A stretch of 64,000 bases of DNA from Endomicrobiia bacterium (GCA_025059805.1 JANXDG010000030.1:10646-74645), one strand, 5' to 3'; positions 3,396 to 41,973 are shown, counted from the stretch's first letter. Notes: generated by a model not told the origin, from the letters alone. Numbers and translations: made by a program.

Positions 3396-4362
3396 AGATA
3401 CTGTCTTTACTTACTTTTTTCACTAATGAAATTTCTTTAATAACAAAAATAAGACCAAAAATAAGAACAGGTAACATACCAACAAAATGTGACAACAATG
3501 CAAAAGATAAAGATTTATCTTTCTCTACATTAAAAATACTCAATGCTAAACTTCCCATAAATTCCCAACTTCCAACATAACCAGGTGAAGATGGTATCAC
3601 AACACTTAAAGCAGTAATAGCTTGTATCAAATATCCTGCCCATATGGAAGGTAAATTTATATTCAAAGAATAACAAACCAAAAGCATCCCTGTACTGTAT
3701 CCAGTCCATAACAACAATGTTAATATTATTACTTTCATCAATATTTTTACATTTTTAAAATTATCTATAGCAGAATAAAAATTCTTAAAAAGTGATAATA
3801 TCCTCAACCAGAATTTCTGTTTACTACTAATCTTACCTAAAAAGTGTAGTATTAAATTTCTAAATTTAAAAATAAAAATCACACCTGTTATTAAAAAAAA
3901 CAACACGCTAACACTTAATATAATACTTACCTGCTGTGGCAAAATTATAAAAAAGGAACCAATAATGATGGATATTATTGGCGGGAATAAATCAATAAAG
4001 CGTTCCATTAAAACAGTAGAGAGTGACAAAGATTTTGGCACGCCCGTCTTTTTTGAAACCATATATGCTTGCACAAGATCACCCATACGAAACGGAAGTA
4101 TGTTATTAAAAAATAAACCAATGTTAATTGATTCAAAAAAGTTAATAAGTTTACAATTTTTATATTCTTCTATAAACTGTTTCCAACGATAACTTCTCAA
4201 CAACAAAATAATCATTCCTAACAACACACTACTAATCAAATATCCTATTTTTACTTGTGAAAAGTTGCGCAGTATTAACCCAAAATCAACTTTTCTAAAT
4301 GCTAATAACAAAAGTATTATACTGATAGCTATTCCTAAAATAAACTTAAACCATTTGCTCAT
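3373..4362 (-). CDS. Flippase-like / lysylphosphatidylglycerol-synthase-TM-region (UPF0104) family membrane protein
   Basis: 329-aa polytopic membrane protein. Its N-terminal region resembles the UPF0104/LPG_synthase_TM family. ATGA start/stop overlap with glyS. Confidence 0.55.
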   Translation of the reverse strand: MSKWFKFILGIAISIILLLLAFRKVDFGLILRNFSQVKIGYLISSVLLGMIILLLRSYRWKQFIEEYKNCKLINFFESINIGLFFNNILPFRMGDLVQAYMVSKKTGVPKSLSLSTVLMERFIDLFPPIISIIIGSFFIILPQQVSIILSVSVLFFLITGVIFIFKFRNLILHFLGKISSKQKFWLRILSLFKNFYSAIDNFKNVKILMKVIILTLLLWTGYSTGMLLVCYSLNINLPSIWAGYLIQAITALSVVIPSSPGYVGSWEFMGSLALSIFNVEKDKSLSFALLSHFVGMLPVLIFGLIFVIKEISLVKKVSKDSIYETNQKI

Positions 4363-6497
4363 ATCTGAATGTATTCTAATGCTCCTATAGTTCTAAAAAC
4401 TTTCAATAGGGAATTTAACAACTTAAGCCTATTTTCTGCTAAAGTTATATTTTCATCAAAAACTAGTACTTTATCAAAAAAATTATCAACTATAGGTTTT
4501 AGTTCTATAAATATTTTTATAACCTTGTCAAATTCTTTATTGCTATAAAATCCGCTGATTCTCACTTTTAACTTTTGAGTTTCATCATATAAAACTTTTT
4601 CTTGTTCTAATTTCAGGAGCTCAGTATTTACTGAGTCTTCATATTTAAATCCTTTCTTTTTTGCTTGAATTAATATATTGTTGACCCTTTTGTATAACTC
4701 TATAAGTTTTATAAACTCTGGTTTGCTTCTAAAATTTTTTAATGATGATAACAATAAACTTTTACTAAAAAATTCGCCGTTAAAATCTGCCAATGCTGAT
4801 CTTATCTCATCAATATTATACGCTTCATTAACAAAAATATTTTCCAGCCTCTGTATGAAAAATTTTATAACAGTGTCAATTACAAAAGGATAATCCCATT
4901 TAACTTCCTGCCCAAGTAACATCTTTCTTGTAATTGGATGTTCAAGATAATACTTGACAATTTTTGACAAACAAAGATCAAATTTAAGATCAAAACAAAT
5001 TTTTATAACACTGTCTGCTGTTTTCTTTAAACCGTATACATCCGAAGTACCAGTTGGTAAGTTATCTGTTATAGTCATATCAATAATATCGGAAATCTTA
5101 GATGATAACGAAAATAATATTGATAATGGATGAGTTGGAACTTTATCTTCATAAAACTTTGGTAAATAATGTTCTTCACAACAAAAAGCTATTTCTTGTG
5201 GCAAATTATGCTTTTTACAATATTCACTACAATAAATCCTTCCTGCGGTACCTTGTAATTCAGGATATTCATACACGATCTGTGTTAAAAGATCATTTTT
5301 TATCAACTTAGAAGTAATATCAATAATTTTGCCATCTATATTCAAATTCAACTCTTCATTTAAGAAACCTGCTAATTGTTTTATCCTCAGAATTTTATCA
5401 TAATATGAACTGTCCAATTTTTCATTATAAACAACACCTCTAAGATGTTCAAAATAACTATCAAATTCATATTTACTGTCGGTATTGTAATAATATGCGA
5501 CATCGTCAAGGCGTGCAATGAGCACTTTTTCAAACCCATCCCTTACGACATCAAGATGTTCAGATGAACCATTTTTGACACCAATAAATTCATTCACAAT
5601 TTCCCCTTGCTCAGTATATAACGGGATAAACTTTTGTTTTGTTTTTAAACATATAATTATAAACTCTTGTGGAAGATTAAGAAATTCTTCTGGAAATTTG
5701 CATTCAATACAGGTAGGATATTCAACTATAGAAACTATCTCTGTTAAAAGTTTTGGATCGTTATCGTATTTTAGTTTTTTTCTTACACAAATATTCTCTA
5801 TAGATTTCAATAATGTTTGGTATCGTTTGTCAAAATCGTAAATTATACATTCTTTCTTTAAAATATTGAAATAGGATTCTACTAACGAAAAATTTTTCTC
5901 TCTTTGAATTTTTAATTTTTTAATCGGATAAGTTTTTATACCATAAGTGAAATTTGTTGATATTGAACTTGCAATTTTTATTTTAATAAATTCATTACCA
6001 AAAATTACAACAATATTACGAATTGGCCGTGGAAATTTAAATCTTGTCTCTTCCCAAACCATCATCTTAGGATATGCCAAACCAACGATAAGTTCTTTAA
6101 CAACTTCTGAAATTTTATTTTTTACTTCTTCACCACCAGAAATTTTTTTTACTGCTAAAACTTTACCTTTCTCAGTTTCTTTAATATATACATCTTTCAA
6201 CTCAACACCATATTTTTTCGCAAAACCAACCCCCTGTGGTGTAAACTCACCATTTTTTAGTCCAATAGACACAGGCGGTCCAAGTATTTCATATACTTCT
6301 TTTTTTGTTTGTTCTGATATTTTTTTAACATAAATTATCATTCTTACAGGTGTAATGTACGACTTTATATCACCATATTCAATTTTAAATTTTTCTAATA
6401 CTGATTCTATTACAAAAGGTAGTTGTGCTTTAAAGTTTGACACACAATTTATCGGCAGTTCTTCAGTATAAATCTCTATCAACAAATCTTTTTTCAT
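4359..6497 (-). CDS. glyS: Glycine--tRNA ligase beta subunit
   Basis: 712 aa; N-terminus LLIEIYTEELP is typical of GlyS. Lies directly downstream of glyQ with abutting stop and start. Confidence 0.9.
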   Translation of the reverse strand: MKKDLLIEIYTEELPINCVSNFKAQLPFVIESVLEKFKIEYGDIKSYITPVRMIIYVKKISEQTKKEVYEILGPPVSIGLKNGEFTPQGVGFAKKYGVELKDVYIKETEKGKVLAVKKISGGEEVKNKISEVVKELIVGLAYPKMMVWEETRFKFPRPIRNIVVIFGNEFIKIKIASSISTNFTYGIKTYPIKKLKIQREKNFSLVESYFNILKKECIIYDFDKRYQTLLKSIENICVRKKLKYDNDPKLLTEIVSIVEYPTCIECKFPEEFLNLPQEFIIICLKTKQKFIPLYTEQGEIVNEFIGVKNGSSEHLDVVRDGFEKVLIARLDDVAYYYNTDSKYEFDSYFEHLRGVVYNEKLDSSYYDKILRIKQLAGFLNEELNLNIDGKIIDITSKLIKNDLLTQIVYEYPELQGTAGRIYCSEYCKKHNLPQEIAFCCEEHYLPKFYEDKVPTHPLSILFSLSSKISDIIDMTITDNLPTGTSDVYGLKKTADSVIKICFDLKFDLCLSKIVKYYLEHPITRKMLLGQEVKWDYPFVIDTVIKFFIQRLENIFVNEAYNIDEIRSALADFNGEFFSKSLLLSSLKNFRSKPEFIKLIELYKRVNNILIQAKKKGFKYEDSVNTELLKLEQEKVLYDETQKLKVRISGFYSNKEFDKVIKIFIELKPIVDNFFDKVLVFDENITLAENRLKLLNSLLKVFRTIGALEYIQI

Positions 6498-20837: not shown

Positions 20838-22097
20838 TTATTTCAAATTCATTACTTGAATAATTTTTTTAAAAATATCTGTATTATCATATACACCACT
20901 AAAAATTTCTGAATTTTTGCCCATAGCATAAATAGGTACTGACATACCAGAATGTACAGAAGTTGACCATCCAATTTCTGCACGTGACGATATGATCCTG
21001 CTAATCTCTTTACGATTACCTTTTGAAATTTGTAGTATTTCTTCTTCAGTAAGATCAGCAATACCAGTATATTCTTCAAATTTTTGTATAATTATTTCTT
21101 TTGGTTGACCTTTCAGTTCTTCGCCAATTTTTTTAATAGAAATTTTTTGTTTACTTATTTTCTCTGGATAAAATCTATACTCACCCGTACCTAAAGATAA
21201 ACCACCAGTTTCATGGTCAGAAGTTATAATAATTAATGTATCCTGTAAAAGCTTTTTTTGTTTTATAGTTTCAACTACCATTGCTACTGCGTCATCAAAT
21301 TCTTTAATCTCATTTATAGCCGTGGCTGCGTCATTATCATGACAAGCCCAGTCTATCCTGCCAGCTTCTATCAATAAGAAAAAACCTTTCTTGTTTTTAC
21401 TTAATACTTCAATTGCTGTTTTACTTAATTCGCTTAATGAAGGTATATCATCTCTTTGTAAGAAGTTTTTGTCAATATAATATACAGAATCTATATCGTT
21501 AAACAATCCAGTCAATTTAGTTACCAATTTCGTATCTAAACTCAAAAGTTCATCTCGTGTAGTTACTACAGTATATCCAGCATTTATAAATTCTTTTGTA
21601 TAAACAGAAAGGTATCTCCCACCTCCTAACAGAACATCTACATTTTTCAATTCTACATATTGTTTAGCAACTTGTTTTTCATCACGAGAATTAATATGTA
21701 CTGCGAACCCAGCTGGTGTTGCATGGGTTATTGTCACTGTTGTCACCAAACCGACTGTTCTACCAGTTTTTTTAATTTTTTCAACAAGGTTCTCAACTAC
21801 AACTCCATCTGTTGTTAAACCTAAAAACGAATTTTTTGTTTTTACACCACAGGACATAGCGGTTGCCGCAGCAGCAGAATCTGTAACTAAACTTTCGTCA
21901 GAATAAGTCTTAACAATCCCTACAACAGGAAATTTTTCAAAGTTTAGATACTGATCTTTACCTACGATAATTATTCGTGCAAGATCCGTGATTGCTAACC
22001 CCATACCGTCACCTATCATCAGAATTAAATTTTTTACTTCACAAAAAATAATACCGTAACCAAGAAGTAATAAAAAAACTATACTTTTGTTTTTCAT
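20838..22097 (-). CDS. Alkaline phosphatase (PhoA family), secreted
   Basis: Signal peptide, the MIGDGMG metal site and the active-site Ser motif TDSAAAATA. Confidence 0.8.
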   Translation of the reverse strand: MKNKSIVFLLLLGYGIIFCEVKNLILMIGDGMGLAITDLARIIIVGKDQYLNFEKFPVVGIVKTYSDESLVTDSAAAATAMSCGVKTKNSFLGLTTDGVVVENLVEKIKKTGRTVGLVTTVTITHATPAGFAVHINSRDEKQVAKQYVELKNVDVLLGGGRYLSVYTKEFINAGYTVVTTRDELLSLDTKLVTKLTGLFNDIDSVYYIDKNFLQRDDIPSLSELSKTAIEVLSKNKKGFFLLIEAGRIDWACHDNDAATAINEIKEFDDAVAMVVETIKQKKLLQDTLIIITSDHETGGLSLGTGEYRFYPEKISKQKISIKKIGEELKGQPKEIIIQKFEEYTGIADLTEEEILQISKGNRKEISRIISSRAEIGWSTSVHSGMSVPIYAMGKNSEIFSGVYDNTDIFKKIIQVMNLK

Positions 22098-22185: not shown

Positions 22186-23229
22186 TCAATATTCTCGTTC
22201 AGTGTGAACACTATAAGTTAGCCCGTCAGAAAATACTGTTATATTTCCGTTTTGGTCTGTTCTATAAATTTTAATTCCTCGTTGGTTTAGTTTTTCCAAT
22301 GTAACCTGATGTGGATGACCAAACGGATTACCTCTACCACATGAAATTATAGCTACCTCAGGAGAGACATGATCTAAAAAAGGTTCAGAAGTAGAAGTGA
22401 AAGAACCATGATGAGGAACCTTAAGGATTGTTGATTTCAATTTATCTCTATACTCTAATAAATCCATCTCTGCAAAAGTTTCTATATCAGCAGTGAAAAG
22501 GACAGAAAAATTTCTATAGGTTAGTTTTATAACTATAGACGAATTATTATCTGCACGGTCAACCGTTTCAGACCGATATCTCTGTATAGGTCCCAGAATT
22601 TCTATGTCAACTTCAGGATCTAACTGTATTTTTTGCTGTGACTTTGCTATTTTGTAGTTAATCTTCATCCTATATATTGTATTTAATAAACTTAAATATT
22701 CAGGATGGGACGTTTCAAGCTTTGCGTCCATAAACCACTTAGGGACAAAACCTGCTTCCAAAATACTTCTTGTACCACCAAAATGGTCCGTATGTGGATG
22801 TGTAATCACGATTCCATCTAAATTAATTTTGTATCTTTCTAAATATGGAACGATAACTTCTTGACCAGCATCAATTTCTGTTATAAGAGTACCTGGTTCT
22901 GATTCCTGAACAACCATACCTCTACCAGGACCAGTATCTATCAAAAAACTTTTCTCATTAGGTAATGTTATAAGAATCCCATCACCTTGTGTTACATCAA
23001 AAAAAACTATTTTTAATAACTTATCAGAAGTTAACTTAAAATAAGATGTTGTTATTTCATTTTTAATCTTGGTATGTATTCTTTGAAAGGTAAATAAACA
23101 TAAAATTAAACATAAACCTGACAATATGTATGCTATAAGTTTATCTCCAAAAATATAAGGTTCGCCACTGTGCAGTTTTTCTTCAAGTTGTTTTACATAT
23201 TGTCTATGCCAATAGTTTCTTTTGTTCAT
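22186..23229 (-). CDS. Membrane-anchored MBL-fold metallo-hydrolase, ComEC C-terminal-domain-like
   Basis: N-terminal TM helix followed by an MBL fold (ITHPHTDHFGG, VPHHGS, NPFGHP) that resembles the beta-lactamase domain of ComEC/Rec2. Confidence 0.7.
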   Translation of the reverse strand: MNKRNYWHRQYVKQLEEKLHSGEPYIFGDKLIAYILSGLCLILCLFTFQRIHTKIKNEITTSYFKLTSDKLLKIVFFDVTQGDGILITLPNEKSFLIDTGPGRGMVVQESEPGTLITEIDAGQEVIVPYLERYKINLDGIVITHPHTDHFGGTRSILEAGFVPKWFMDAKLETSHPEYLSLLNTIYRMKINYKIAKSQQKIQLDPEVDIEILGPIQRYRSETVDRADNNSSIVIKLTYRNFSVLFTADIETFAEMDLLEYRDKLKSTILKVPHHGSFTSTSEPFLDHVSPEVAIISCGRGNPFGHPHQVTLEKLNQRGIKIYRTDQNGNITVFSDGLTYSVHTEREY

Positions 23230-23232
23230 CTT

Positions 23233-25137
23233 TTATAACTTTTCAGCTTTCGGAGAAACTGGTTGTTCTGTTGTCGTTAACTCCTGTTGTATTTCTTTAT
23301 CAATTATCTCACCGGTTTCCGATACTTTAAATAACAATTTATCTTGATATTCTGTTTTTATCAATTGTTCTTTAGGGCAACCTTTAAGATAGTCACAACC
23401 ACCACAGTATTTGTTAATTTTTGATGGAAAAATTTCTTCAATTTTTTCTTCTGGAGGTTTTTCTCCTTTAGTCTCGTATTCTTTTTTAAGGCTAATATAT
23501 TTCTCTCCGTCCGCCCACATTTTGTCTCCTATATTTTTTACATAATCGTCTAAAAGATCAATATCCTTCTGTGACCGTGTTGTATAGATTATTTCGCCAA
23601 AACGAATAAAGATTAAACCTAAACGTTTAATATCAATCCCTTTGTTCCTCATTGCCCAGTAATAGATTGTAAGCTGCAAATCTTTATCAACTTCTTCCTG
23701 CGTACGAACTTTTGGATCCGTCTTATAGTCAAGTATTTCAAAGGTTCCATCAGGATTATTCTGTACCCTGTCTATATATCCAATCATTACATGGTTTCCT
23801 TTACCTATAGGTAATTCAAAGTATTCTTCAGTCATATACGCAGGTAGGTATTGTTCTTTAACAAATTTTTCATAATAACTAGTTAACCATTTCTTACCGT
23901 TCTGATAATATTCCTGTTCTTCTTGTTTTGAACTATACCCTGCAGAAATCCAACATTGGTCGTATAAACGAAACAACTCATCTATACTCGGCTCTTTTCT
24001 TTTCTTTGGTTTTATCTTGTAAAAAAGTTCTAAAGTATTATGTATGGTTGAACCTATGGAAAAGAACCCTTGTGGTTTTACACCTAACCTATCTATGTAG
24101 CAGAGTCTGTATCTACGTGGACATTGAATATACATTGACATTTTAGAATATGATAACGCCATTCTACCAGGTGTCTCCCGCGCAATACGAAACAAAGTTG
24201 TATCTGGAGATACGGGTTCTATTCCTTTTTGTTTATCACCTTCACGCTCAGTCTTCCAACCAGGACAAATATCATAATACCCACACCAGCCACATAACGG
24301 TCCCTTATGAAGTTCATATTCTTTATTTCTCAATTTCTCCTTTACCTCGGATATAATTTTCCTAGTTTCTTCCTGCATTGACCAGTCCTCAACAAAATCT
24401 GTTAGATTATCGTATAACAAAAAAAACTTAGAAAATTTAAATTTCTTTTTTTTCTTCTCAAAGTATGTTTTTAAAACAAAATATTGTAAGTTTGTATTAA
24501 CATCGTAAGGTAACATCTCAGAAATAATATTTCTTTTACTTGTAGCAAAGTCTATTACCCAATAGTCAAAATTATTATCTCTGTTAACTAAGATACAATC
24601 GCATTTCATTTTTAACCTTACACCATTATGTTTAACAACAATATCGGAATTTACTGTATATACATATTGTTTATGTTTTTCATACCAGCAATTAAAGTTA
24701 GTAAATATAGTTCGTATATTTTTTTCGTAATATAATCTATCTTCAGGAGTAAGTTCTGGAAAGTTCTCCAATACCTGTTGCATTATTATAAGTGAAATAT
24801 ATTCTAAATCTACCTTAATCTCTTTATTCAAAATTTTATAAATATATTGATGTATTAACTGCCCTATCAATCCTTCCGGATACTCTTTCGCAAGAACTTC
24901 ATCTAAATTGTAGTAATACTGAAATTTGTATTTAAGTCCACATGTGCGCATATCACTAATTTTCCCTACCGTAAGAACAATTTTCGGAACGAACAAAAAT
25001 TTCAAATATTCAAAAATTTTTCTCACACCACTGGCTAACATTATAAACAGATCAAATATCCCGCTAACAGCTTGTTCTCCTTTAAGGTTTTTCATGTTCA
25101 TTTTACATTTTAAAGAGTTTATTTTTTTACATTGCAA
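23233..25137 (-). CDS. Tandem Cas4/RecB-like PD-(D/E)XK nuclease with two C-x2-C-x5-C Fe-S cluster motifs
   Basis: Two repeats. Repeat 2 has the Cas4 N-terminal Y-x2-CPR motif (MYIQCPRRY), GYIDRV, ILDYKT (D-x-K) and CGGCDYLKGC. Repeat 1 has a degenerate TCGL in place of CPR, CDCILV, IDFATS (Lys missing) and CGWCGYYDIC. Confidence 0.65.
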   Translation of the reverse strand: MQCKKINSLKCKMNMKNLKGEQAVSGIFDLFIMLASGVRKIFEYLKFLFVPKIVLTVGKISDMRTCGLKYKFQYYYNLDEVLAKEYPEGLIGQLIHQYIYKILNKEIKVDLEYISLIIMQQVLENFPELTPEDRLYYEKNIRTIFTNFNCWYEKHKQYVYTVNSDIVVKHNGVRLKMKCDCILVNRDNNFDYWVIDFATSKRNIISEMLPYDVNTNLQYFVLKTYFEKKKKKFKFSKFFLLYDNLTDFVEDWSMQEETRKIISEVKEKLRNKEYELHKGPLCGWCGYYDICPGWKTEREGDKQKGIEPVSPDTTLFRIARETPGRMALSYSKMSMYIQCPRRYRLCYIDRLGVKPQGFFSIGSTIHNTLELFYKIKPKKRKEPSIDELFRLYDQCWISAGYSSKQEEQEYYQNGKKWLTSYYEKFVKEQYLPAYMTEEYFELPIGKGNHVMIGYIDRVQNNPDGTFEILDYKTDPKVRTQEEVDKDLQLTIYYWAMRNKGIDIKRLGLIFIRFGEIIYTTRSQKDIDLLDDYVKNIGDKMWADGEKYISLKKEYETKGEKPPEEKIEEIFPSKINKYCGGCDYLKGCPKEQLIKTEYQDKLLFKVSETGEIIDKEIQQELTTTEQPVSPKAEKL

Positions 25138-28100
25138 CGTTCTCTTGCTCTGTTGCTAATCGTGTTTCGTACTCTTCCTTACTTATACCTGTTGTATATT
25201 TAAATTCTTCACCGTTCAACTCTACAACTACAGCACCAACGTAATCAGTACGTAAAAATTTTATACCTAGTTCTTCGTAAATATTTGCTGTTTCCGTAAC
25301 ATACGAAGAGAAAAAATACCCTATTCTCTGATTGGTCCAACCATATTGGCATATTGCAATCTTGGGCGATACTTTATAGAGAAAATTTTTATTTACAGAT
25401 TTTGAAAAACCATTCTGTGGCACAAGCAAAATATCAGCAGTTAATTTGTCTGACATATCCATTACAAATTTTTCCTGCAACTCAAACCCAACCTGTGATG
25501 GTATCAAAATTGTAATTTGACCAAAAGTTATCCTAACAGCAAAAGAATTATTGCCTGGTTCATCCATCGTGTTATTTACGCCACCTGGGTTTATTATCGT
25601 TACCCTTAAAGGTTTGCCACTTACAATTTCTTCTAGTATAAGCTCTTCATTAGAAGAGACAATTTTTACATCACCTCTATAATTCTTCAAAAATCTTGAG
25701 AGTTTATAATTCTCGTTGTATAACCCTGTCACTTCGTAAAGATACGGATTTGACATATAGTACCATAGATTAAACTTCTCTAAGAAATCATAATATGTAA
25801 AAGAAGTACAGTCTTTATAGGTATGTGGCAAATATAATTTCTCTGTCCGAAAATGCGAAAGAAGATAAGGTAAACCGCCGATACACTGTGGTTTCAATGA
25901 TGTTATAACTACACTATCAAACTTTTTGATCTTATAATAAGTTAATGTTGGAGAAATTGCAGATTCTGCAGGTGACCAACCTGGAGGACCAGGTGGACCT
26001 GTATCTATTAAAACATTTTTTGTTGGCGTAGTTATAAGAACAGCATTACCAAAACCTACATCAAAAAAAATCAGTCTTACACTATATGTTTTCTTAATTT
26101 CTGGTAATAAAAAATAATATATTAAAGAAAAAAATATTATAACTGAGGTTACTACCACTTTCAGTCTATATTTTATGAACATTTCTTTAATTTTATCAAA
26201 CCATATAATTATGCCTAAAATCAAATACCATATAAGTAGCGATTTACTGCTAAACATTTCAACATAAGGATATGGCACAAAATTACCCCAGGTTTTTGCC
26301 ATACCCAAAAACATCTGACAAAGTTGATTATTGAACGCATTAATTATAAGTGCTATATTTACACCTATGTCGTTAATTATCTTAAAACCAAAAAGTGAAG
26401 AAAATAAGGTAAATACTAAATCAATAATACCTGCAATCCAGCCAAGTTGAACAATCCATCCTATTAGAGGTATAGCAAGAAAGTTTGCATAAAAACCAGA
26501 AATTGGAAATCTATAAAAATATACACTTGACAATGGCCACATCATACCTAACTGTATTGCTACCTGTGCACAAACAAATTGTATTAACGTACGCAATGTC
26601 GGGTTTGATCTCATATCTTTAACCAACAATTTACCAGAGAGAGAATATAAATAGTGTGCTATTACTCCACAGAAATAAAAAACTAATGAAAGTAAAAAAA
26701 ACTCACCTTTGTATAGCCATCTTGAAGTTGGTATGTTGAACCATTTTGGAAACAAAACATCTAATGATGGGAACCAGACTAAAAACGGGAACAGTTTCCT
26801 TACTAAAGAAACTTCTTGCAAAATTCCACCAAATAAAGAAAGCAATGTCATTCCAGTTACTACCGAAAATAATGGAAAAGTAATAAACTGGTGAATAAGT
26901 TTTGAATTTGTATAAATCAAAATTTTTTCAACCACAGGGCTAACATATATAAGAGACCATACTGCCATAAATGATAATACAAATGAAGCATCTGGTAATA
27001 AACTTGGATTCAATAATAGTATAACACAGGCTGCGATAATAATTGTCATCCTGGAACTCTTAACCAAAGATAATTTCAATACATCATACATAAATAAACC
27101 TGTACAGAACATCAATGCTGATCTTGTAGTTGCAGGCGACGCGCCTGTCATTATCACAAAAATTGTCAACGCTATGCTAACTAAAATAAATCTTAGAAAA
27201 GATTTGATTTTAAAAATTCTACATATCATTAAAAGTAATGCTGCGATAAAACCTGTATGTAAACCTGAAAGTGCAAGTACATGCGCTACACCTGTTGCTT
27301 GAAACTGCTCTCTAATTTTTTGAGGGACACCACCACGATAACCAAGTGTCACACCTCCTAAAAACGCACTCTGCGGGTACGGCACTGTTTTACGTATTGT
27401 TGTTAATATTTTTTTTCTCAAAATAAATGCTAGTTTCACTATAAAGTTAACTTTGCCCATACCAATATATTGTATTTCTGACGAATCACGTATAGTCTTT
27501 GTCACTGCATAGATACCACGAGCATTAAGATATTTTCTATAGTCAAACCCAGCAGGATTTGTAGCTTTTTTCGGTAATAGTAATGGTGATACTATTTTAA
27601 CATAGTCACCATAGCTCATCTGTAAATAATATTCACCAATTGTTGGTAACACCTTTGCTCTAATAAGACCACTACCGTTTTCAATTTTTACTTCTTCACC
27701 CTGATAACAACGAAGTTTTTTAATTATTTTTATATTGGGATCATCATAATACTGCCCAAGGCCAGATTCCAAAAGTAACTTATTAACATTTTCATTATTT
27801 ACAAATACCACTGCTAAAACTCTATCATAAATGTCAAACATATAATCTTCTTGAATAATCAGAGTAACATGTTTATTTAATATTTTACTTCTTAAAAATT
27901 CAGTTGCCTCATCTGCTTTTTCCTGCCCAATCTCTGGTGCATTAACAGCCATCAGTCGTACTTTATTGCCACTTTTCGTAACAAAGGTATCACCATCTGT
28001 TACTTTAACAACAAATTCATTCTCTACTATAACTCTAGCTGTTGACGTATCAATCTCTATAGTATATCCCTTTTTTGGAGATGGTATAATGCGATCGGGT

Positions 28101-28525
28101 TTTATAACAATATTTGTTGCATCCTCTCTTATATCTGGATCAGTAACTATTGTACCATAAATAACACTTGTCTGTGAGAAATCAGTATCAATAAATTTAT
28201 ATTTTCCATTTTCTTTAGTAAGTAAATGTGTTGAGGGATAAACTTTCATATCTTTGAGGTACCAAAATACACCAAAGGAAAAACTTGCAAAAACAAGAAA
28301 TAAACGTTTAAAAGTAAGCTTAGGCAGGACTTCTTTTTCAGGAATAATTATAGATATTATGATAAAAATAAAACAAACGATTAAAAATATATAGTGTGGT
28401 GGGCTTAAAAGTATTGAAATATTGGAAGTATATCCTATAATACCTATTCCAACCCCTGCTACAAAGAACCATAACACTATCACTGAATTTTCTAATATAT
28501 TAGCAATTTTATTTCGTAAATCCAT
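25127..28525 (-). CDS. comEC: ComEC/Rec2-family DNA internalisation channel protein with an embedded thermonuclease (SNase) domain and C-terminal MBL domain
   Basis: 1132 aa. It has a Competence-domain signature (VAHVLALSGLHTGF). An SNase-like segment (VTDGDTFVTKSGNKVRLMAVNAPEIG...DRVLA) sits in the N-terminal extracytoplasmic region. The C-terminal MBL-like domain begins VRLIFFDVGFGNAVLI. Confidence 0.75.
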   Translation of the reverse strand: MDLRNKIANILENSVIVLWFFVAGVGIGIIGYTSNISILLSPPHYIFLIVCFIFIIISIIIPEKEVLPKLTFKRLFLVFASFSFGVFWYLKDMKVYPSTHLLTKENGKYKFIDTDFSQTSVIYGTIVTDPDIREDATNIVIKPDRIIPSPKKGYTIEIDTSTARVIVENEFVVKVTDGDTFVTKSGNKVRLMAVNAPEIGQEKADEATEFLRSKILNKHVTLIIQEDYMFDIYDRVLAVVFVNNENVNKLLLESGLGQYYDDPNIKIIKKLRCYQGEEVKIENGSGLIRAKVLPTIGEYYLQMSYGDYVKIVSPLLLPKKATNPAGFDYRKYLNARGIYAVTKTIRDSSEIQYIGMGKVNFIVKLAFILRKKILTTIRKTVPYPQSAFLGGVTLGYRGGVPQKIREQFQATGVAHVLALSGLHTGFIAALLLMICRIFKIKSFLRFILVSIALTIFVIMTGASPATTRSALMFCTGLFMYDVLKLSLVKSSRMTIIIAACVILLLNPSLLPDASFVLSFMAVWSLIYVSPVVEKILIYTNSKLIHQFITFPLFSVVTGMTLLSLFGGILQEVSLVRKLFPFLVWFPSLDVLFPKWFNIPTSRWLYKGEFFLLSLVFYFCGVIAHYLYSLSGKLLVKDMRSNPTLRTLIQFVCAQVAIQLGMMWPLSSVYFYRFPISGFYANFLAIPLIGWIVQLGWIAGIIDLVFTLFSSLFGFKIINDIGVNIALIINAFNNQLCQMFLGMAKTWGNFVPYPYVEMFSSKSLLIWYLILGIIIWFDKIKEMFIKYRLKVVVTSVIIFFSLIYYFLLPEIKKTYSVRLIFFDVGFGNAVLITTPTKNVLIDTGPPGPPGWSPAESAISPTLTYYKIKKFDSVVITSLKPQCIGGLPYLLSHFRTEKLYLPHTYKDCTSFTYYDFLEKFNLWYYMSNPYLYEVTGLYNENYKLSRFLKNYRGDVKIVSSNEELILEEIVSGKPLRVTIINPGGVNNTMDEPGNNSFAVRITFGQITILIPSQVGFELQEKFVMDMSDKLTADILLVPQNGFSKSVNKNFLYKVSPKIAICQYGWTNQRIGYFFSSYVTETANIYEELGIKFLRTDYVGAVVVELNGEEFKYTTGISKEEYETRLATEQENVAM

Positions 28526-28706
28526 TTTTACTCAACAGTTTTTGTAAATCTTTTTTCACATTTTCGTCGTTTATTTGAGGATAGTAATTTTTGTTCGTCT
28601 GATAAATATTTTTAATTCTATACTCCGGCATTGTCAACAACACAACTCCTCCTATTGTCAAAGAAACTAAAAGCATAAATATAAATAATTTAGTTGTGGC
28701 ATCCAT
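28509..28706 (-). CDS. Small single-TM protein (hypothetical)
   Basis: 65-aa ORF with one hydrophobic helix. Overlaps the comEC start by 17 nt; no homology recognised. Confidence 0.3.
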   Translation of the reverse strand: MDATTKLFIFMLLVSLTIGGVVLLTMPEYRIKNIYQTNKNYYPQINDENVKKDLQKLLSKNGFTK

Positions 28707-36308: not shown

Positions 36309-38555
36309 TTATAATTCTATAACTAATCCATCTTTAGTATGAACTATCTTCTTAATCCCCCGTATTACATTGCTATATTGTATCTCTACACTGATATTAC
36401 CAAAAATCTTAGTAGTGAAAGAACTTCTGCGTAATGTACTACCTATAAACTTTTTGTTTCCTGTAATTATGTAAAATAACAACTTTATATCCTTGTTGCG
36501 AACAAATAAATGTTCAATTTGTTTTACATCTTCCTCATATTTACCGTGTCTTGGTAATTGAACAAGTAGGAATTTGTCTTTTAATTTCATCATTGAAAGT
36601 TTTTCTAAAATGTATTCTCCAGGTAGGTCATTTGAAAGAACTATTATTGCATTTTTATATCTTACAGTAACAAGCAACGAGTTGTAATCTGTAAGTTTTA
36701 TTTCATCACTGGCTGTAGTTACATAATTTGGTATTACTGTTATCTCCACATTATCGTTGACTAAAATTGTCCTTGATGTATGTATGATTTCATATTCAAT
36801 TTTTCTTTTTAATACATCTATAAAAATTTCTTTATAATCACTAGTCCACGGTGGTACATAGTTTGAGGTATATAATTTCTTAACTTTAAAATTAGATATT
36901 ATATACTTAGCGCCACCGTAATGAGGATAATGTGCATGTGTAATAATAAGGTAATCAATTTTATTTAAACTATCTTTGTACAACTCAGGTATAATTTTAA
37001 ACTTTGCAACTTTTTCGTCACCACCCGTATCTATAAGCACTGTCCTACCACATGGAGTTTTTATCAAAACACTCTCACCAAAATTTAGATCAAAAAATTT
37101 AATCTTAAATATCCTTTTTTTAAAAATTGAATTGCTAAAAATTAGAATTCCTGTTGATAAAATCAAAATTCCTAAATACAAAATTAAACTTTTTTTCTTT
37201 ATTAATTTCGCTATAGCAACTGTTAGTAAGTAGTAAATAATAATCGCATAAGAACTCGGTGTTGTTATGTTTAATTTAGCATATGGTAGATTAGCAAAAA
37301 ACTTTACAGTGGATAAAAATACTTCACCTAAAATTCCAACAGTTTGCCATAAAACTGATATATAACCTGAGGATAAAAACTCTACCAAATATGATATCAT
37401 CCCAAGCCATAATAGTAAACAAGTCAAAGGAATTACAAAAATGTTAGATACTATACTTACTGTGGAAACTTTGTTAAAATAATATATAATCAGAGGTAGT
37501 ATCATAATTTGAGCAGAAAATGTGGTAATGAAAAGTTTCACAAAATATTGAAAAACAATGTTTTTATTTTCAATAGATGACTTTATGTGTTGATAAAAAA
37601 ATGGATAAAAATATACTATACCGAAACACGCTGCGAACGATAACTGAAACGAAGGATTAAACAAACTTCGTGGCGAAAACAATAATATTATAAACGCTGC
37701 TAAAATTAGAGAGTAGATACTATTTTGTTTTTGTTTCAAAAGATTCGCAGCAGCAATAGTGATAACAATTATCGTTGCACGGACAACTGGCGATGAACAA
37801 CCGGTAATAAACATATAAAATAATACAACAATACAACTCAATATAATTTTAAATTCATATCTTAAAAAAGTTAACTTTAACAAAAAGTATGTCAATATAA
37901 ACACAAATCCTACATGAAGTCCGCTTACCACTAACACATGTGCTACGCCAGCATCCTGGAAATATATTTTTACATCTTTAATCTCTTCATCCTCATACCC
38001 CAAAATAACTCGTAAAATTACACTATTTATAGGCGAGTTAAGTTTTTTATTAGATATTTCTACAAGTGTTTGTTTAACTTTAGTTGTAATAAAATATAAT
38101 TGTCTTAAACACTGGCTAACAAAATTTTGATTACCAAAATTTTGCTCCAATTTTACTGCATAGCCAATTTTTTGTACATCATAACTGTTAAATAAAAACA
38201 AATCATAGTTGTTTTGTAAATTAATTGTTCTACATAGTGTTAACACTGATACCTGGTCACCATAGCTTATGTTCTCAAATTCTTCAGTGTGCCTGTCAGT
38301 CTGTATATAATACTTACTACCATTTCTGGTTTTAATTATAAAAATCTTTTTATTTTTCTCTTCTTTTATAAAATATACTTTTCCTTTAACTAACTCATAC
38401 TGGTAAGGTTCTTTTCTTAGGTACAACAAGTTGTCATATATTATTCTGTATTCAACTATAAGAAAGAATGTATAGAAAAGCATACTAGAAGGTAGTAACA
38501 AAAGTAAGAATTTCCAACTATGATTTTTATTCAAACTGGAAAGATTTTTCACCAA
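36309..38555 (-). CDS. comEC: ComEC/Rec2-family protein (canonical DUF4131 + Competence + MBL architecture), second paralog
   Basis: DAGVAHVLVVSGLHVGFVF Competence-domain motif, a polytopic TM region, and a C-terminal MBL domain (ITHAHYPHYGG). Confidence 0.75.
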   Translation of the reverse strand: MVKNLSSLNKNHSWKFLLLLLPSSMLFYTFFLIVEYRIIYDNLLYLRKEPYQYELVKGKVYFIKEEKNKKIFIIKTRNGSKYYIQTDRHTEEFENISYGDQVSVLTLCRTINLQNNYDLFLFNSYDVQKIGYAVKLEQNFGNQNFVSQCLRQLYFITTKVKQTLVEISNKKLNSPINSVILRVILGYEDEEIKDVKIYFQDAGVAHVLVVSGLHVGFVFILTYFLLKLTFLRYEFKIILSCIVVLFYMFITGCSSPVVRATIIVITIAAANLLKQKQNSIYSLILAAFIILLFSPRSLFNPSFQLSFAACFGIVYFYPFFYQHIKSSIENKNIVFQYFVKLFITTFSAQIMILPLIIYYFNKVSTVSIVSNIFVIPLTCLLLWLGMISYLVEFLSSGYISVLWQTVGILGEVFLSTVKFFANLPYAKLNITTPSSYAIIIYYLLTVAIAKLIKKKSLILYLGILILSTGILIFSNSIFKKRIFKIKFFDLNFGESVLIKTPCGRTVLIDTGGDEKVAKFKIIPELYKDSLNKIDYLIITHAHYPHYGGAKYIISNFKVKKLYTSNYVPPWTSDYKEIFIDVLKRKIEYEIIHTSRTILVNDNVEITVIPNYVTTASDEIKLTDYNSLLVTVRYKNAIIVLSNDLPGEYILEKLSMMKLKDKFLLVQLPRHGKYEEDVKQIEHLFVRNKDIKLLFYIITGNKKFIGSTLRRSSFTTKIFGNISVEIQYSNVIRGIKKIVHTKDGLVIEL

Positions 38556-41500
38556 TAATATGTCTAAGTTCCGATAACATTTTGTTTGATGGTAGGATTT
38601 TATAGTCAGTTTCTATAATTATCTCTTCAAAATTTCTTGTGTATACTTTAAAATAAACCTGTGTATTACCAGGGTATCTCTCTATAATCTTTTTTATTCT
38701 TGATAAAAATTCATCATCTACACCTACATTTGATAAAGTAATGTAGATTCTTTCCTTCTTTTTATAAAGTTCTTCTTTGAAATTTTCAAATAGAACTACT
38801 TTTTCAGCTATGATACTTTTCTTGGTTTCATCTGTAATGCTTATGTTCCCTTTGACATATACAATACCATTTTTGTGTATAAAATCCTTACATTCTTCAT
38901 ACACTTTATTATAAACAAGTATTTCAATCTCGTCAGTTAAATCTTCTAACATAAATTTTACCCAGGGTTGGCCTGATTGTGTCTTATATTTTTTTATTTC
39001 TGTTATCATACCTATGAGTTCTACTGCTTTACCATCTTCCGAAGGTACCTCGCCTATTGAATAATGAGTTATACTTTTTATTTCATCCAAGTGTTTCTGT
39101 AAAGGATGGCCTGACCAGTATATTTCTGTTAATTGATGTTCATGATAAAATATTTCTTGCTCTGTAAATTTCTCAACAACTTTTGGTTTATGCTCAGGTT
39201 CAGAGAAAAGAAGTTGAACTTTTTGTTTCCTTTGTTCTTTCTCTTCAACTCTGTTTATATACATTTTCCTAACAATACACTTTTCTTCTAAACTTAGATT
39301 ACTTTTATACAATGAATCTAAACTTCCAGAAAGAATTAAAGCTTCAATCACACGTTTGTTCACTTCTCTCGTATTAACTCTTGAGATAAAATCTTCAAAA
39401 GATTTAAACTTCCCTGTCTTATTTCTTAGGTTAACAATAAACTCTGCTGCTGTTTCACCTACATTTTTTATTCCTAATAATCCATATCTTACAAAATTGT
39501 CTGATTCTTTTGAAAAATATACGTCAGAAGAATTTATATCTGGCGGTAAAAGTTTAAAACCCATCTCTTCAATTTCAAGAAGAAACTTACGATAATTTTT
39601 TTCTTCCTTCCCCTGTGATTTAATATTTGCACCTGAACGTACTTCTGCGTTCACTAGAGATATCAAATATTCTAAAGGATAATGTGCTTTCAAATACGCA
39701 CATCTATAAGAAGTAACTGCATAAGCGGCAGCATGCGACTTGTTAAAACCATATCCTCCAAAATTTAGAATCTGTTGAAAAATTTTCTGTGCAATATTTA
39801 ATGGGATACCATTTTTTTTAGCGCCAGAAATAAACCTATCCTCCATTTTTTCAATTTTTTCAGGCACTTTTTTTGCTACTGCAGACCTCAAATCATCTGC
39901 TTCCTCAGGTGTGAAACCACCAATTACCTGTGCTATTTTCATAACCTGCTCTTGATATACAAGAACACCATAAGTTTCTTTTAATACTTCAACTAATAAC
40001 GGATGGTCATATTTGATTTCCTGCTTATTATGTTTCCGTGCGACGAAATCGTTCACCATACCACTACGAATCGGTCCAGGACGATATAATGCTATACATG
40101 CGATAATGTCTTCAAAAACTGTTGGTTTTAGCTTTCTTAACAAATCCTGCATACCAGGCGATTCTAGCTGAAACACACCCGTAGTTTTCCCTTCCTGTAA
40201 TAATTTAAAAGTTTTTTTATCGTCCAAAGGAATTTTTTTTAAGTCCAGGTTTATACCATAATTTCGTCTAATTAAATCCAAAGTTTCTTCAATAATGGAC
40301 AATGTTTTCAATCCTAAGAAATCAACTTTAAGTAAACCTAAATCTAACAAAATTTCGTCGTAATATTGTGTTGTGACAGGTTCTTCTTTTGTCCGTCTAT
40401 AAAGTGGAGTATGATCTGTTATATCTCCTTTAGAAATTATAACGCCAGAAGCATGTATACCTGTATGTCTTGTTCTACCAACTATATCCTTTGAATAATC
40501 CAAAATTCTTCTTACATTCTCATCTTTTTGATATAACTCTTTAATTTCGGGTATTTCAGTGATTGTTTCTTCTACGGTCATATCCGCATTAGGAATAAGT
40601 TTTGAAATTTTATCAGCCAAACTTGCTGGCAAACCTAACACTCTTGTAACATCACGTACAGTATTTTTAATTTTTAATGTATTAAAAGTTATTATCTGTA
40701 CAACATTTTTCTCACCATATTTTTTTCTTACATATTCTATTATCCTGTCCCTGCCATAATCTGCAAAGTCAATATCTAAATCAGGTAAGGTTTTCCTTGC
40801 AGGATTCAAAAACCGTTCAAATAAAAGTCCATACTTTATGGGATCAACATCAGTAATACCTAAACAATAACTAACCAACGAACCTACACCAGAACCACGA
40901 CCCGGCCCTACAGGTATATTGTTTTCTTTAGCAAAGTTTACAAAATCTCTTACAATAAGAAAGTATGGTGAGAAACCTTTTTGTTTAATAATTTCAAGTT
41001 CGTATTCTAACCTATTAGTAATTTCTAATGGAATATGTTCATAACGTTCTTTAAGTCCTTCGTAACAAAGTTTTCTCAACAAATTATCTGCGGTCTCGCC
41101 CTCAGGTAAGGTAAATTCAGGTAAGTGTATCTTACCAAATTCTATTATAAGATTACACTGTTGTGAAATTTCAACTGTATTTTTTAAAGCATCCGGATAT
41201 TCTTTAAAAACTTCATACATTTCCTCAGGTGACTTTAGATAAAACTCATCACTTCCAAAACTTAACCTGTCAGGTGAATCTAATGTTGTCCTTGTACCTA
41301 TACACAATATAATTTCCTGTAATTTCGCATCTTGTTTCCTTACATAATGAATGTCATTAGTTGCAACAACTTTTAATCCGAAACGTTTCGCAATTTCATA
41401 TAATTTTGGTAAAATTTTTTTCTGATCTTCAAGATTGTTATCCATTAGTTCTATATAAAAATTGTCTTTACCAAAAACATCAATATAAAACTCAATAGTC

Positions 41501-41973
41501 TTTTCTATATCTTTTTCCGCTTTACCTTCTAACAAACAATAAGCAATTTCTCCTTCTAAACAACCAGATAGTGCAATTATATCCTTAGCATATACTTTTA
41601 GCCAATCTTTTTTAACTTTCCCCTTACCAGCAACTAAATTTTCTTCATACGCTTTTGAAAGAAGTTTCATTAAGTTTTTATATCCAACATCATTTTTTGC
41701 TAATAATGTTAAATGAAAACTTTTTCTTTGGTCAGGTATTTTCTCTTCTGGATCAATGTAAACCTCACATCCAATAATAGGTTTTATCCCAGCAGAGGTA
41801 CAACTGCGATAAAATTCTATTGCACCAAACATATTACCATGGTCCGTTATAGCTAAAGCTGGCATATTATATCTTTTTGTAATCTCAAAAAGGTCCGAAC
41901 CTTGATCTACTCTACACATACCATCTAAAAGTGAATACTCACTGTGCAGATGTAAATGTACAAACTCTTTCAT
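38527..41973 (-). CDS. dnaE: DNA polymerase III alpha subunit
   Basis: 1148 aa. N-terminal PHP domain begins HLHLHSEYSLLDG, followed by polymerase core and OB domains. Confidence 0.95.
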   Translation of the reverse strand: MKEFVHLHLHSEYSLLDGMCRVDQGSDLFEITKRYNMPALAITDHGNMFGAIEFYRSCTSAGIKPIIGCEVYIDPEEKIPDQRKSFHLTLLAKNDVGYKNLMKLLSKAYEENLVAGKGKVKKDWLKVYAKDIIALSGCLEGEIAYCLLEGKAEKDIEKTIEFYIDVFGKDNFYIELMDNNLEDQKKILPKLYEIAKRFGLKVVATNDIHYVRKQDAKLQEIILCIGTRTTLDSPDRLSFGSDEFYLKSPEEMYEVFKEYPDALKNTVEISQQCNLIIEFGKIHLPEFTLPEGETADNLLRKLCYEGLKERYEHIPLEITNRLEYELEIIKQKGFSPYFLIVRDFVNFAKENNIPVGPGRGSGVGSLVSYCLGITDVDPIKYGLLFERFLNPARKTLPDLDIDFADYGRDRIIEYVRKKYGEKNVVQIITFNTLKIKNTVRDVTRVLGLPASLADKISKLIPNADMTVEETITEIPEIKELYQKDENVRRILDYSKDIVGRTRHTGIHASGVIISKGDITDHTPLYRRTKEEPVTTQYYDEILLDLGLLKVDFLGLKTLSIIEETLDLIRRNYGINLDLKKIPLDDKKTFKLLQEGKTTGVFQLESPGMQDLLRKLKPTVFEDIIACIALYRPGPIRSGMVNDFVARKHNKQEIKYDHPLLVEVLKETYGVLVYQEQVMKIAQVIGGFTPEEADDLRSAVAKKVPEKIEKMEDRFISGAKKNGIPLNIAQKIFQQILNFGGYGFNKSHAAAYAVTSYRCAYLKAHYPLEYLISLVNAEVRSGANIKSQGKEEKNYRKFLLEIEEMGFKLLPPDINSSDVYFSKESDNFVRYGLLGIKNVGETAAEFIVNLRNKTGKFKSFEDFISRVNTREVNKRVIEALILSGSLDSLYKSNLSLEEKCIVRKMYINRVEEKEQRKQKVQLLFSEPEHKPKVVEKFTEQEIFYHEHQLTEIYWSGHPLQKHLDEIKSITHYSIGEVPSEDGKAVELIGMITEIKKYKTQSGQPWVKFMLEDLTDEIEILVYNKVYEECKDFIHKNGIVYVKGNISITDETKKSIIAEKVVLFENFKEELYKKKERIYITLSNVGVDDEFLSRIKKIIERYPGNTQVYFKVYTRNFEEIIIETDYKILPSNKMLSELRHIIGEKSFQFE

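Follow-up and report, generated by a model that had tools for sequence, protein, structure and literature searches.

A staphylococcal-nuclease domain inserted in the OB fold of a long ComEC paralogue from Endomicrobiia

Results

The subject of this study is a comEC-like gene on a 64,000-nucleotide stretch of DNA from an Endomicrobiia bacterium (GCA_025059805.1, JANXDG010000030.1:10646-74645), here called the window, in whose coordinates all positions are given unless a related locus is named. On its minus strand an open reading frame (ORF) at 25127-28525 encodes 1132 amino acids (aa), and its coordinates agree exactly with those that an earlier note, made from the sequence alone, had assigned to a ComEC protein carrying a staphylococcal-nuclease (SNase) domain. 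The strings quoted in that note were likewise located in the protein (VTDGDTFVTKSGNKVRLMAVNAPEIG at aa 175-200, YDRVLAVVF at aa 233-241, LLESGLG at aa 251-257 and VAHVLALSGLHTG at aa 413-425). The protein is 100% identical to NCBI entries from metagenome-assembled genomes (MAGs) labeled 'ComEC/Rec2 family competence protein [Endomicrobia/Endomicrobiia bacterium]'; the host group of these identical proteins is Endomicrobia/Endomicrobiia, phylum Elusimicrobiota. As a whole, the ORF codes for a ComEC DNA-import channel of a paralogous, 'long' kind, in which a SNase domain of about 108 residues is inserted in a tight periplasmic loop of the OB fold.

The Competence channel domain (PF03772) was found at aa 393-573 with 108.8 bits, and the same Pfam search of the full protein returned DUF4131 (52.4 bits) and SNase (43.3 bits). 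Lactamase_B stayed under the Pfam cutoff (20.1 versus 22.7 bits), and the NCBIfam equivalog model TIGR00361 (ComEC_Rec2) was barely exceeded, at 190.4 bits versus a cutoff of 190.05. A phmmer comparison with the ComEC solved by cryo-electron microscopy (cryo-EM; 30bt) gave E=7e-37. A full-length AlphaFold2 model, calculated with 68 homologues as input, reached a mean predicted local distance difference test (pLDDT) of 90.4 and a predicted template-modelling score (pTM) of 0.81. From the N-terminus, the protein comprises three transmembrane helices (aa 2-93, positions 28247-28522; model helices H2-33, H44-60 and H72-93), the N-terminal half of the OB fold (DUF4131; aa 96-158, positions 28052-28240; strands E120-126, E137-147 and E151-158), the inserted SNase (thermonuclease) domain (aa 159-267, positions 27725-28051), the C-terminal half of the OB fold (aa 268-345, positions 27491-27724), the Competence domain with an extended transmembrane region (aa 361-810, positions 26096-27445; Pfam, phmmer and the helical model) and a C-terminal pseudo-metallo-β-lactamase (pseudo-MBL) domain (aa 815-1112, positions 25190-26083), all encoded on the minus strand. 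The transmembrane region is about 200 residues longer than in canonical ComEC, and the whole protein measures about 1130 versus about 750-830 residues.

Four kinds of comparison (Pfam, alignment with nuclease A, phmmer against PDB sequences and Foldseek) place the SNase domain. The SNase profile PF00565 matched aa 188-271 of the full protein with E=5.5e-11, the 43.3 bits standing against a gathering score of 21, and the excised insert by itself scored 48.3 bits (E=1.6e-12, profile positions 1-91 of 107), so that the alignment to SNase proposed in the earlier note proved significant in both settings. This match is far beyond chance. The NCBIfam thermonuclease models NucI and EcnA matched weakly, below threshold. 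Against PDB sequences, phmmer paired aa 160-258 with thermonuclease residues 2-104 (E~1e-5), and Foldseek superposed the modelled insert on about 40 SNase crystal structures with template-modelling (TM) scores of 0.62-0.71, a root-mean-square deviation of 1.7-3.1 Å and 24-28% identity over some 100-119 columns. The omega-loop of the insert is shortened and resembles that of the Delta+PHS variants, which were the top structural matches.

In SNases, whose fold is a five-stranded OB-type barrel with helices, D21 and D40 are Ca2+ ligands, while R35, E43 and R87 are catalytic. The region was aligned with Staphylococcus aureus nuclease A, and the residue pairing that this gave agrees with the phmmer PDB alignment. 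In this alignment D179 corresponds to D21, R190 to R35, E198 to E43, Y233 to Y85 and R235 to R87, while N195 stands at the position of D40. The equivalents of D21, R35, E43 and R87 are invariant in the target (P0001) and in all nine other representatives of 90%-identity clusters of its clade (P0002-P0010). Of the catalytic and Ca2+-site residues that the earlier note had proposed to check, all of these are thus kept, the exception being D40. Asparagine is however common at that position among natural SNases (65 of the 130 nearest homologues, in the motif N[ATS]P[ED], with aspartate in 63 of the 130), and its presence need not be a sign of decay. This natural variation was used in place of kinetic data, for which a literature search on D40 substitutions returned nothing relevant. 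Judged by sequence and model, the insert has a genuine SNase fold. R190, E198 and R235, the residues for phosphate binding and catalysis, are unaltered, as is D179 at the position of a Ca2+ ligand, and from its sequence the domain looks catalytically competent.

The insertion site was delimited by an alignment of 56 long-ComEC relatives. Forty of these have 0-4 residues at the site, versus 106-137 in the SNase-bearing members, and the flanks of the insert align residue for residue with the SNase-less relatives. When aa 159-267 were removed in silico, the DUF4131 match, split into two stretches in the native protein (52-66 bits, the C-terminal one pairing aa 286-342 with profile positions 100-157), became a single contiguous match (profile positions 4-157 of 165, 70 bits). 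Because the segment is absent from most relatives and its excision restores a contiguous DUF4131, it is not a known part of that domain, in agreement with the earlier note. The order given there, with the insert between the first transmembrane segments and Competence, was correct; more exactly, the insert sits inside the OB fold, between strands E151-158 and E268-275 of the model. The extracytoplasmic placement also held: the OB fold directly follows the three N-terminal transmembrane helices in the model, as in the ComEC of Neomoorella carbonis, whose cryo-EM structure shows three transmembrane helices followed by a periplasmic OB fold, with OB and MBL together shaping the channel entrance (PMC13539106). 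By homology with this topology, the SNase domain would be periplasmic and close to the channel entrance.

Database searches for ComEC-SNase fusions, which the earlier note had called for, recovered few cases, all in one subclade. An exhaustive phmmer search with aa 115-345 against 1.84 billion representatives clustered at 50% identity gave 4340 matches, nearly all of them short stand-alone SNases, and among the best 150 of these 4340 only P0006, P0096, P0098, P0099, P0023 and P0102 combined SNase with Competence or with the flanking ComEC OB fold. The insert is thus rare, confined to a handful of 50% clusters among the 1.84 billion representatives. A word-indexed search with the OB and SNase segment (aa 100-350), whose index offered few candidates, returned two matches, one a fragment, and a contig profile search with the long-ComEC alignment yielded mostly distant canonical ComECs, none of them with SNase among the matches listed (at least 600), though it also led to conserved stand-alone MBL and PD-(D/E)XK neighbours of the kind described below. 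The in-frame architecture recurs in no fewer than 15 of the 90%-identity clusters, which come from separate samples and sources (NCBI, ENA, JGI, Logan). Where an origin is named, it is Endomicrobiia MAGs, one 'Syntrophomonadaceae/Bacillota' MAG or the candidate division NPL-UPA2, the entry from the latter (UniRef100_A0A399FTW4) being labeled 'DUF4131 domain-containing protein'.

A tree built from the shared domains by neighbour joining places every SNase-bearing sequence in a single subclade, interspersed with SNase-less ones; P0019, for example, has no SNase and is the sister of P0017. The insert of P0011 is decayed (NGVI, no equivalents of E43 or R87, no Pfam SNase match) in a lineage that keeps the PD-(D/E)XK nuclease gene and the intact stand-alone MBL gene described below, and P0015 and P0016 carry an aspartate at the E43-equivalent position. 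As far as the sequences tell, this pattern agrees with a single gain and, later, recurrent loss or decay of the insert; repeated gain at the same site would be an alternative history. Within the target clade mean identity is 71% for the insert, 71-79% for the OB fold and 62% for the pseudo-MBL, so in conservation the insert is on a par with the remainder of the protein, which points to purifying selection. Since sister lineages that retain the other components have lost it or let it decay, the insert is best seen as an accessory enhancement and not as an essential part.

The C-terminal domain of the long ComEC retains the MBL fold, as a Foldseek match of the model to the ComEC MBL crystal structure 9ic4 indicates (E=1e-14, TM score 0.84). 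Its motifs are degenerate throughout: in alignment with canonical ComECs, DVGQGD has become DVGFGN, HxHxDH has become SLKPQC, TGD has become PSQ, HHG has become QNG, and GHP is absent. By these motifs the fused MBL is a pseudo-nuclease in which every metal ligand is gone. In a ComEC studied experimentally, alanine at H598, D602, H603 and D700, which are most of these ligands, all but eliminates the activity of the MBL in vitro and causes a severe transformation defect in vivo (PMC12455585). An MBL is nevertheless optional, many ComECs having none at all (PMC6299819). Degeneration of this domain is common to the sampled members of the 'long ComEC' family that were aligned (about 950-1260 aa; the family is mainly from Elusimicrobiota). 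Because the MBL is dead across this family while 40 of the 56 members have no SNase, its loss is older than the insert and independent of it.

The long comEC gene lies in a tightly spaced string of minus-strand genes in the order 65-aa protein, long ComEC, PD-(D/E)XK nuclease, membrane-anchored MBL and alkaline phosphatase. The 65-aa protein (28509-28706, minus strand), which looks unannotated, has a single transmembrane segment and a conserved motif, YR.KNIYQTNKNYYPQINDE, and the end of its gene overlaps the start of comEC by 17 nucleotides. Homologues are found immediately upstream of long comEC genes at the related loci L001 (7812-8000), L086 (3725-3940) and, in this case next to a SNase-less long ComEC, L004 (7824-7961), and the protein probably serves the long ComEC as a dedicated partner. 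Directly downstream of comEC, 23233-25137 (minus strand) encodes a 634-aa Cas4/AddB-like PD-(D/E)XK nuclease with two PDDEXK_1 stretches (Pfam, 146 bits), Cas4/AddB-like cysteine motifs and weak matches to TIGR00372 (Cas4) and AddB. The listed TTG start probably over-extends this ORF, its homologues measuring 608-617 aa. The gene is kept in L001, L002, L005, L011 and L086, and in a short version in L004.

Two genes downstream of the long ComEC, 22186-23229 (minus strand) encodes a stand-alone ComEC-type MBL nuclease of 347 aa with an N-terminal transmembrane anchor. Its sequence corresponds to the last third of the ComEC_Rec2 model (TIGR00361 positions 441-663, 160.5 bits), and its motifs are all intact (DVTQGD, THPHTDHFGG, TAD, PHHGS and GHPH). 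The OB-Competence-MBL plan plus SNase put forward in the earlier note therefore needs amending, since the fused MBL is a pseudo-enzyme and the intact one is encoded separately. A stand-alone MBL adjoins long comEC across distant lineages, in L001, L002, L004, L005, L006, L007, L011, L012, L022, L028 and L086. The window and L001, L004, L022, L028 and L086 have it in intact form, whereas it is degenerate in L005, L006, L007, L011 and L012, and on account of the latter five the idea that it universally supplies the missing activity was rejected. A stand-alone MBL beside a long ComEC would amount to a 'split ComEC' arrangement, of which no description was found. With an intact MBL of the ComEC type two genes downstream, the SNase comes on top of a split system, where it is not the sole nuclease available.

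An alkaline phosphatase with an N-terminal signal-like sequence (20838-22097, minus strand; Pfam Alk_phosphatase, 301.5 bits) starts 88 nucleotides downstream of the stand-alone MBL. L001 and L086, syntenic in other respects, do not have this gene; it is possibly co-transcribed with the comEC cluster and is an uncertain member of the system. The set of 65-aa protein, PD-(D/E)XK nuclease and MBL recurs in L001, L002 and L086, and the same three partners are recognizable in the SNase-less L004, there together with two UvrD helicases. A promoter and terminator scan of 20.5-30.2 kb gave counts not above those of shuffled sequences and no operon boundary.

As the earlier note had observed, the second comEC in the window is free of the insert. 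This shorter paralogue (36309-38555, minus strand; 748 aa) scored 199 bits for Competence and 57.5 bits for Lactamase_B, with no SNase, and shares 27% identity with the long ComEC, and tblastn with the insert found no other copy in the window. Its MBL is partly degenerate as well (motif 1 DLNFGES; motif 2 HAHYPH, with proline for aspartate; GHP absent), and its ORF shares 29 nucleotides with the end of dnaE (38527-41973). A second, shorter ComEC within 10 kb of the long one is also present in L005 and L011.

In the NPL-UPA2-like lineage, in the regions L003 11653-15750 and L085 4476-9033, the SNase-ComEC gene is followed by two tandem thymidylate kinase genes. The L003 flank also holds PstS/PstC/PstA-like genes, and the L085 flank CHAD/HD and Ppx-GppA-type HD proteins and a guanylate kinase. 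By gene content these flanks represent a neighbourhood of nucleotide and phosphate metabolism. In L088, the gene at 3929-5074, downstream of the SNase-ComEC P0031, encodes a secreted-looking protein of 381 aa with an 'AWNSDAHHK' N-terminal region and C-terminal tetratricopeptide repeats; its assignment as a secreted nuclease of S1/P1 or Zn-PLC type was left unused, Zn_dep_PLPC, the sole match of this sort, scoring 14.5 bits, below the cutoff. A UDP-glucose/GDP-mannose dehydrogenase gene in L001 (3539-6322) shows Pfam matches to Intein_splicing and, faintly, LAGLIDADG, which suggests an intein insertion that the L086 orthologue (432 aa) does not have. The window itself has about 31% G+C, and all of its 47 large annotatable ORFs lie on the minus strand; the plus strand has only three ORFs of at least 150 aa, all unannotated (152-176 aa) and each inside a larger minus-strand ORF. 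GC skew is negative throughout the 64 kb. The strand bias of the genes is extreme, and neither a replication origin nor a terminus is indicated within the window.

Discussion

We lean towards a reading in which the SNase domain is active as a nuclease, depends on Ca2+ and is tethered where DNA enters the ComEC channel, where it would cut incoming DNA while the anchored MBL degrades one strand in trans. Held at this position, it may cleave incoming DNA endonucleolytically and thereby create ends and limit fragment length, much as NucA of Bacillus subtilis or EndA of Streptococcus pneumoniae, and it may contribute to the removal of the non-imported strand. The canonical strand-degrading activity would be supplied by the separately encoded MBL, and the insert would be an accessory enhancement of the channel. 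This reading draws on the retained catalytic residues, on the position near the entrance predicted by homology and on the intact MBL two genes downstream; its closest precedents in concept are S. pneumoniae with EndA and the independent haloarchaeal fusions of SNase and MBL.

Several points weigh against it. SNase leaves 3'-phosphate ends, unlike the MBL nuclease, which makes its fit with productive import questionable. The C-terminal SNase helix has no equivalent in the insert, in the AlphaFold2 model as in the profile match (positions 1-91 of 107), and stability or activity could suffer. The operon itself we infer from spacing and conserved order. Also, the available flanks of the SNase-bearing L003 and L085 show no stand-alone MBL, and for this reason 'addition, not replacement' may not hold everywhere.

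The last point bears directly on our first idea, a non-orthologous replacement in which the task of degrading the non-imported strand passed from the fused MBL, now dead, to the SNase; this would be a third solution, next to an active ComEC MBL and to EndA. The metal ligands of the MBL are all gone while the catalytic residues of the SNase are kept, and the SNase lies within the OB fold, the part of canonical ComEC that delivers DNA to the nuclease (PMC12455585; PMC13539106). In the L003 and L085 lineages such a takeover may have occurred. However, the MBL is dead across the long-ComEC family, including the 40 of 56 aligned members that have no SNase, an intact ComEC-type MBL lies two genes away in the window, L001 and L086, and P0011 kept its stand-alone MBL when its SNase had decayed. 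The intact stand-alone MBL and the dead MBL of SNase-less relatives led us to downgrade replacement, and as a general explanation we now regard it as unlikely.

In a second rival reading, the long ComEC system, with or without the secreted alkaline phosphatase, would import DNA and digest it as a source of nucleotides and phosphate, the shorter second ComEC serving transformation; such a catabolic role we consider unlikely. Two ComEC paralogues per genome, often near each other, agree with it, as do the conserved PD-(D/E)XK neighbour of cytoplasmic type, the UvrD helicases of L004 and the signal-peptide alkaline phosphatase downstream in the window. The PstS/PstC/PstA-like genes of L003, the two thymidylate kinases of L003 and L085, and the CHAD/HD and Ppx-GppA-type HD proteins and guanylate kinase of L085 can be read in the same direction. 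These neighbours vary among lineages, though, the phosphatase being missing in the syntenic L001 and L086; tmk-holB are housekeeping genes and perhaps coincidental neighbours, PD-(D/E)XK and UvrD are equally AddAB-like recombination or repair components, and regulatory evidence such as a Pho box is lacking. Taken to its full extent, the idea would make the long ComEC with its SNase, pseudo-MBL, MBL in trans, small transmembrane partner and PD-(D/E)XK nuclease a dedicated second DNA-import machine with a non-recombinational purpose, for example DNA as food, and the SNase its front-end shredder; we hold this, too, to be a speculative proposal with rather low prospects. If true, it would describe a nutritional DNA-uptake system on a ComEC scaffold, distinct from the transformation ComEC 8 kb away.

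It is quite improbable that the insert is a non-catalytic, additional DNA-binding (OB-type) module that raises the DNA affinity of the periplasmic domain. The SNase fold is itself an OB-type barrel, its C-terminal helix is missing here, P0011 keeps the insert with its catalytic residues destroyed, and P0015 and P0016 have an aspartate for the E43 equivalent; the invariance of the D21, R35, E43 and R87 equivalents in P0001-P0010 is nevertheless what catalysis, and not binding alone, would lead one to expect. An assembly or annotation artefact, that is a chimeric contig or a frameshift fusing a SNase gene into comEC, was rejected as having practically no chance of being true, with nothing found in its favour and with the same in-frame architecture in at least 15 independently sampled 90%-identity clusters, flanks that align residue for residue with SNase-less relatives and a model that is confident across both junctions standing against it.

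The long ComEC bears on how strands are removed and DNA ends generated at channels whose ComEC has no active MBL. For Helicobacter pylori, removal of the non-imported strand with a ComEC that has no active MBL is cited as unresolved (PMC12455585). The protein offers a natural experiment, a channel whose DNA-binding domain carries a different nuclease that is well understood, whose own MBL is a fossil and whose MBL partner is detachable, with which the division of labour among nucleases at the channel mouth, the reason for retaining a dead MBL and a possible separation of transformation from DNA scavenging between two ComEC paralogues could be addressed. The extra enzymatic domain is concealed by automated labels such as 'ComEC/Rec2 family competence protein' or 'DUF4131 domain-containing protein'. 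What we describe is domain accretion in a known system, with inferred function and in a few uncultured lineages; the architecture is unexpected all the same, and would be experimentally useful for the transformation field.

ComEC, SNase and MBL are each well known, and it is their arrangement, SNase in the OB fold together with a fossil MBL and a split-off MBL, that is not described in the literature searched. A 2018 census of Competence-domain partners lists Lactamase_B_2, Lactamase_B_3, Abhydrolase_5, Abhydrolase_6 and SLBB, with SNase not among them (PMC6299819), and the structural papers on ComEC that were read, among them PMC13539106 and PMC12455585, describe OB fold, Competence and MBL domains only. 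The in-silico, structural and Endomicrobium-specific ComEC literature that we searched makes no mention of a SNase, thermonuclease or nuclease insert.

Among known systems, canonical ComEC/Rec2 (B. subtilis; N. carbonis 30bt, PMC13539106) shares with the long ComEC the three transmembrane helices, the periplasmic OB fold, Competence and a C-terminal MBL fold; the long ComEC differs by the SNase in its OB fold, a longer transmembrane region and the loss of the MBL metal ligands. The secreted or surface SNases, such as S. aureus Nuc and B. subtilis YncB, YokF and YhcR, have the same fold and catalytic residues and are stand-alone or otherwise fused, whereas the insert has no C-terminal helix and is embedded in a loop of another domain. 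NucA is alike in proposed role only, a functional analogy for which no homology is claimed, and is a separate protein. Its fold family is not known to be related to SNase. According to Provvedi et al. 2001, as cited in PMC12455585, NucA of B. subtilis cuts bound DNA endonucleolytically at the uptake site and so provides ends for import. In S. pneumoniae the ComEC MBL is predicted to be inactive and the membrane-bound nuclease EndA is used instead (PMC5031224; PMC12455585), which parallels our case in pairing an inactive MBL with a different nuclease at the membrane surface; EndA however is a separate protein of unrelated fold, while the extra nuclease described here is a SNase fold built into ComEC itself, with a ComEC-type MBL provided in trans as well. 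Haloarchaea encode thermonuclease lipoproteins of the Hvo_1477 type and larger proteins that join SNase to a ComEC-like MBL (COG2333), for example 'ComA' of Halobacterium NRC-1 (PMC3929857). These also combine SNase and a ComEC-type MBL outside the cytoplasm, and Hvo_1477 homologues have been linked to extracellular DNA metabolism (PMC3929857). In contrast to the protein described here, they have neither a Competence channel nor the context of an OB-fold insertion, whereas in the long ComEC the SNase resides inside a full channel whose fused MBL is dead.

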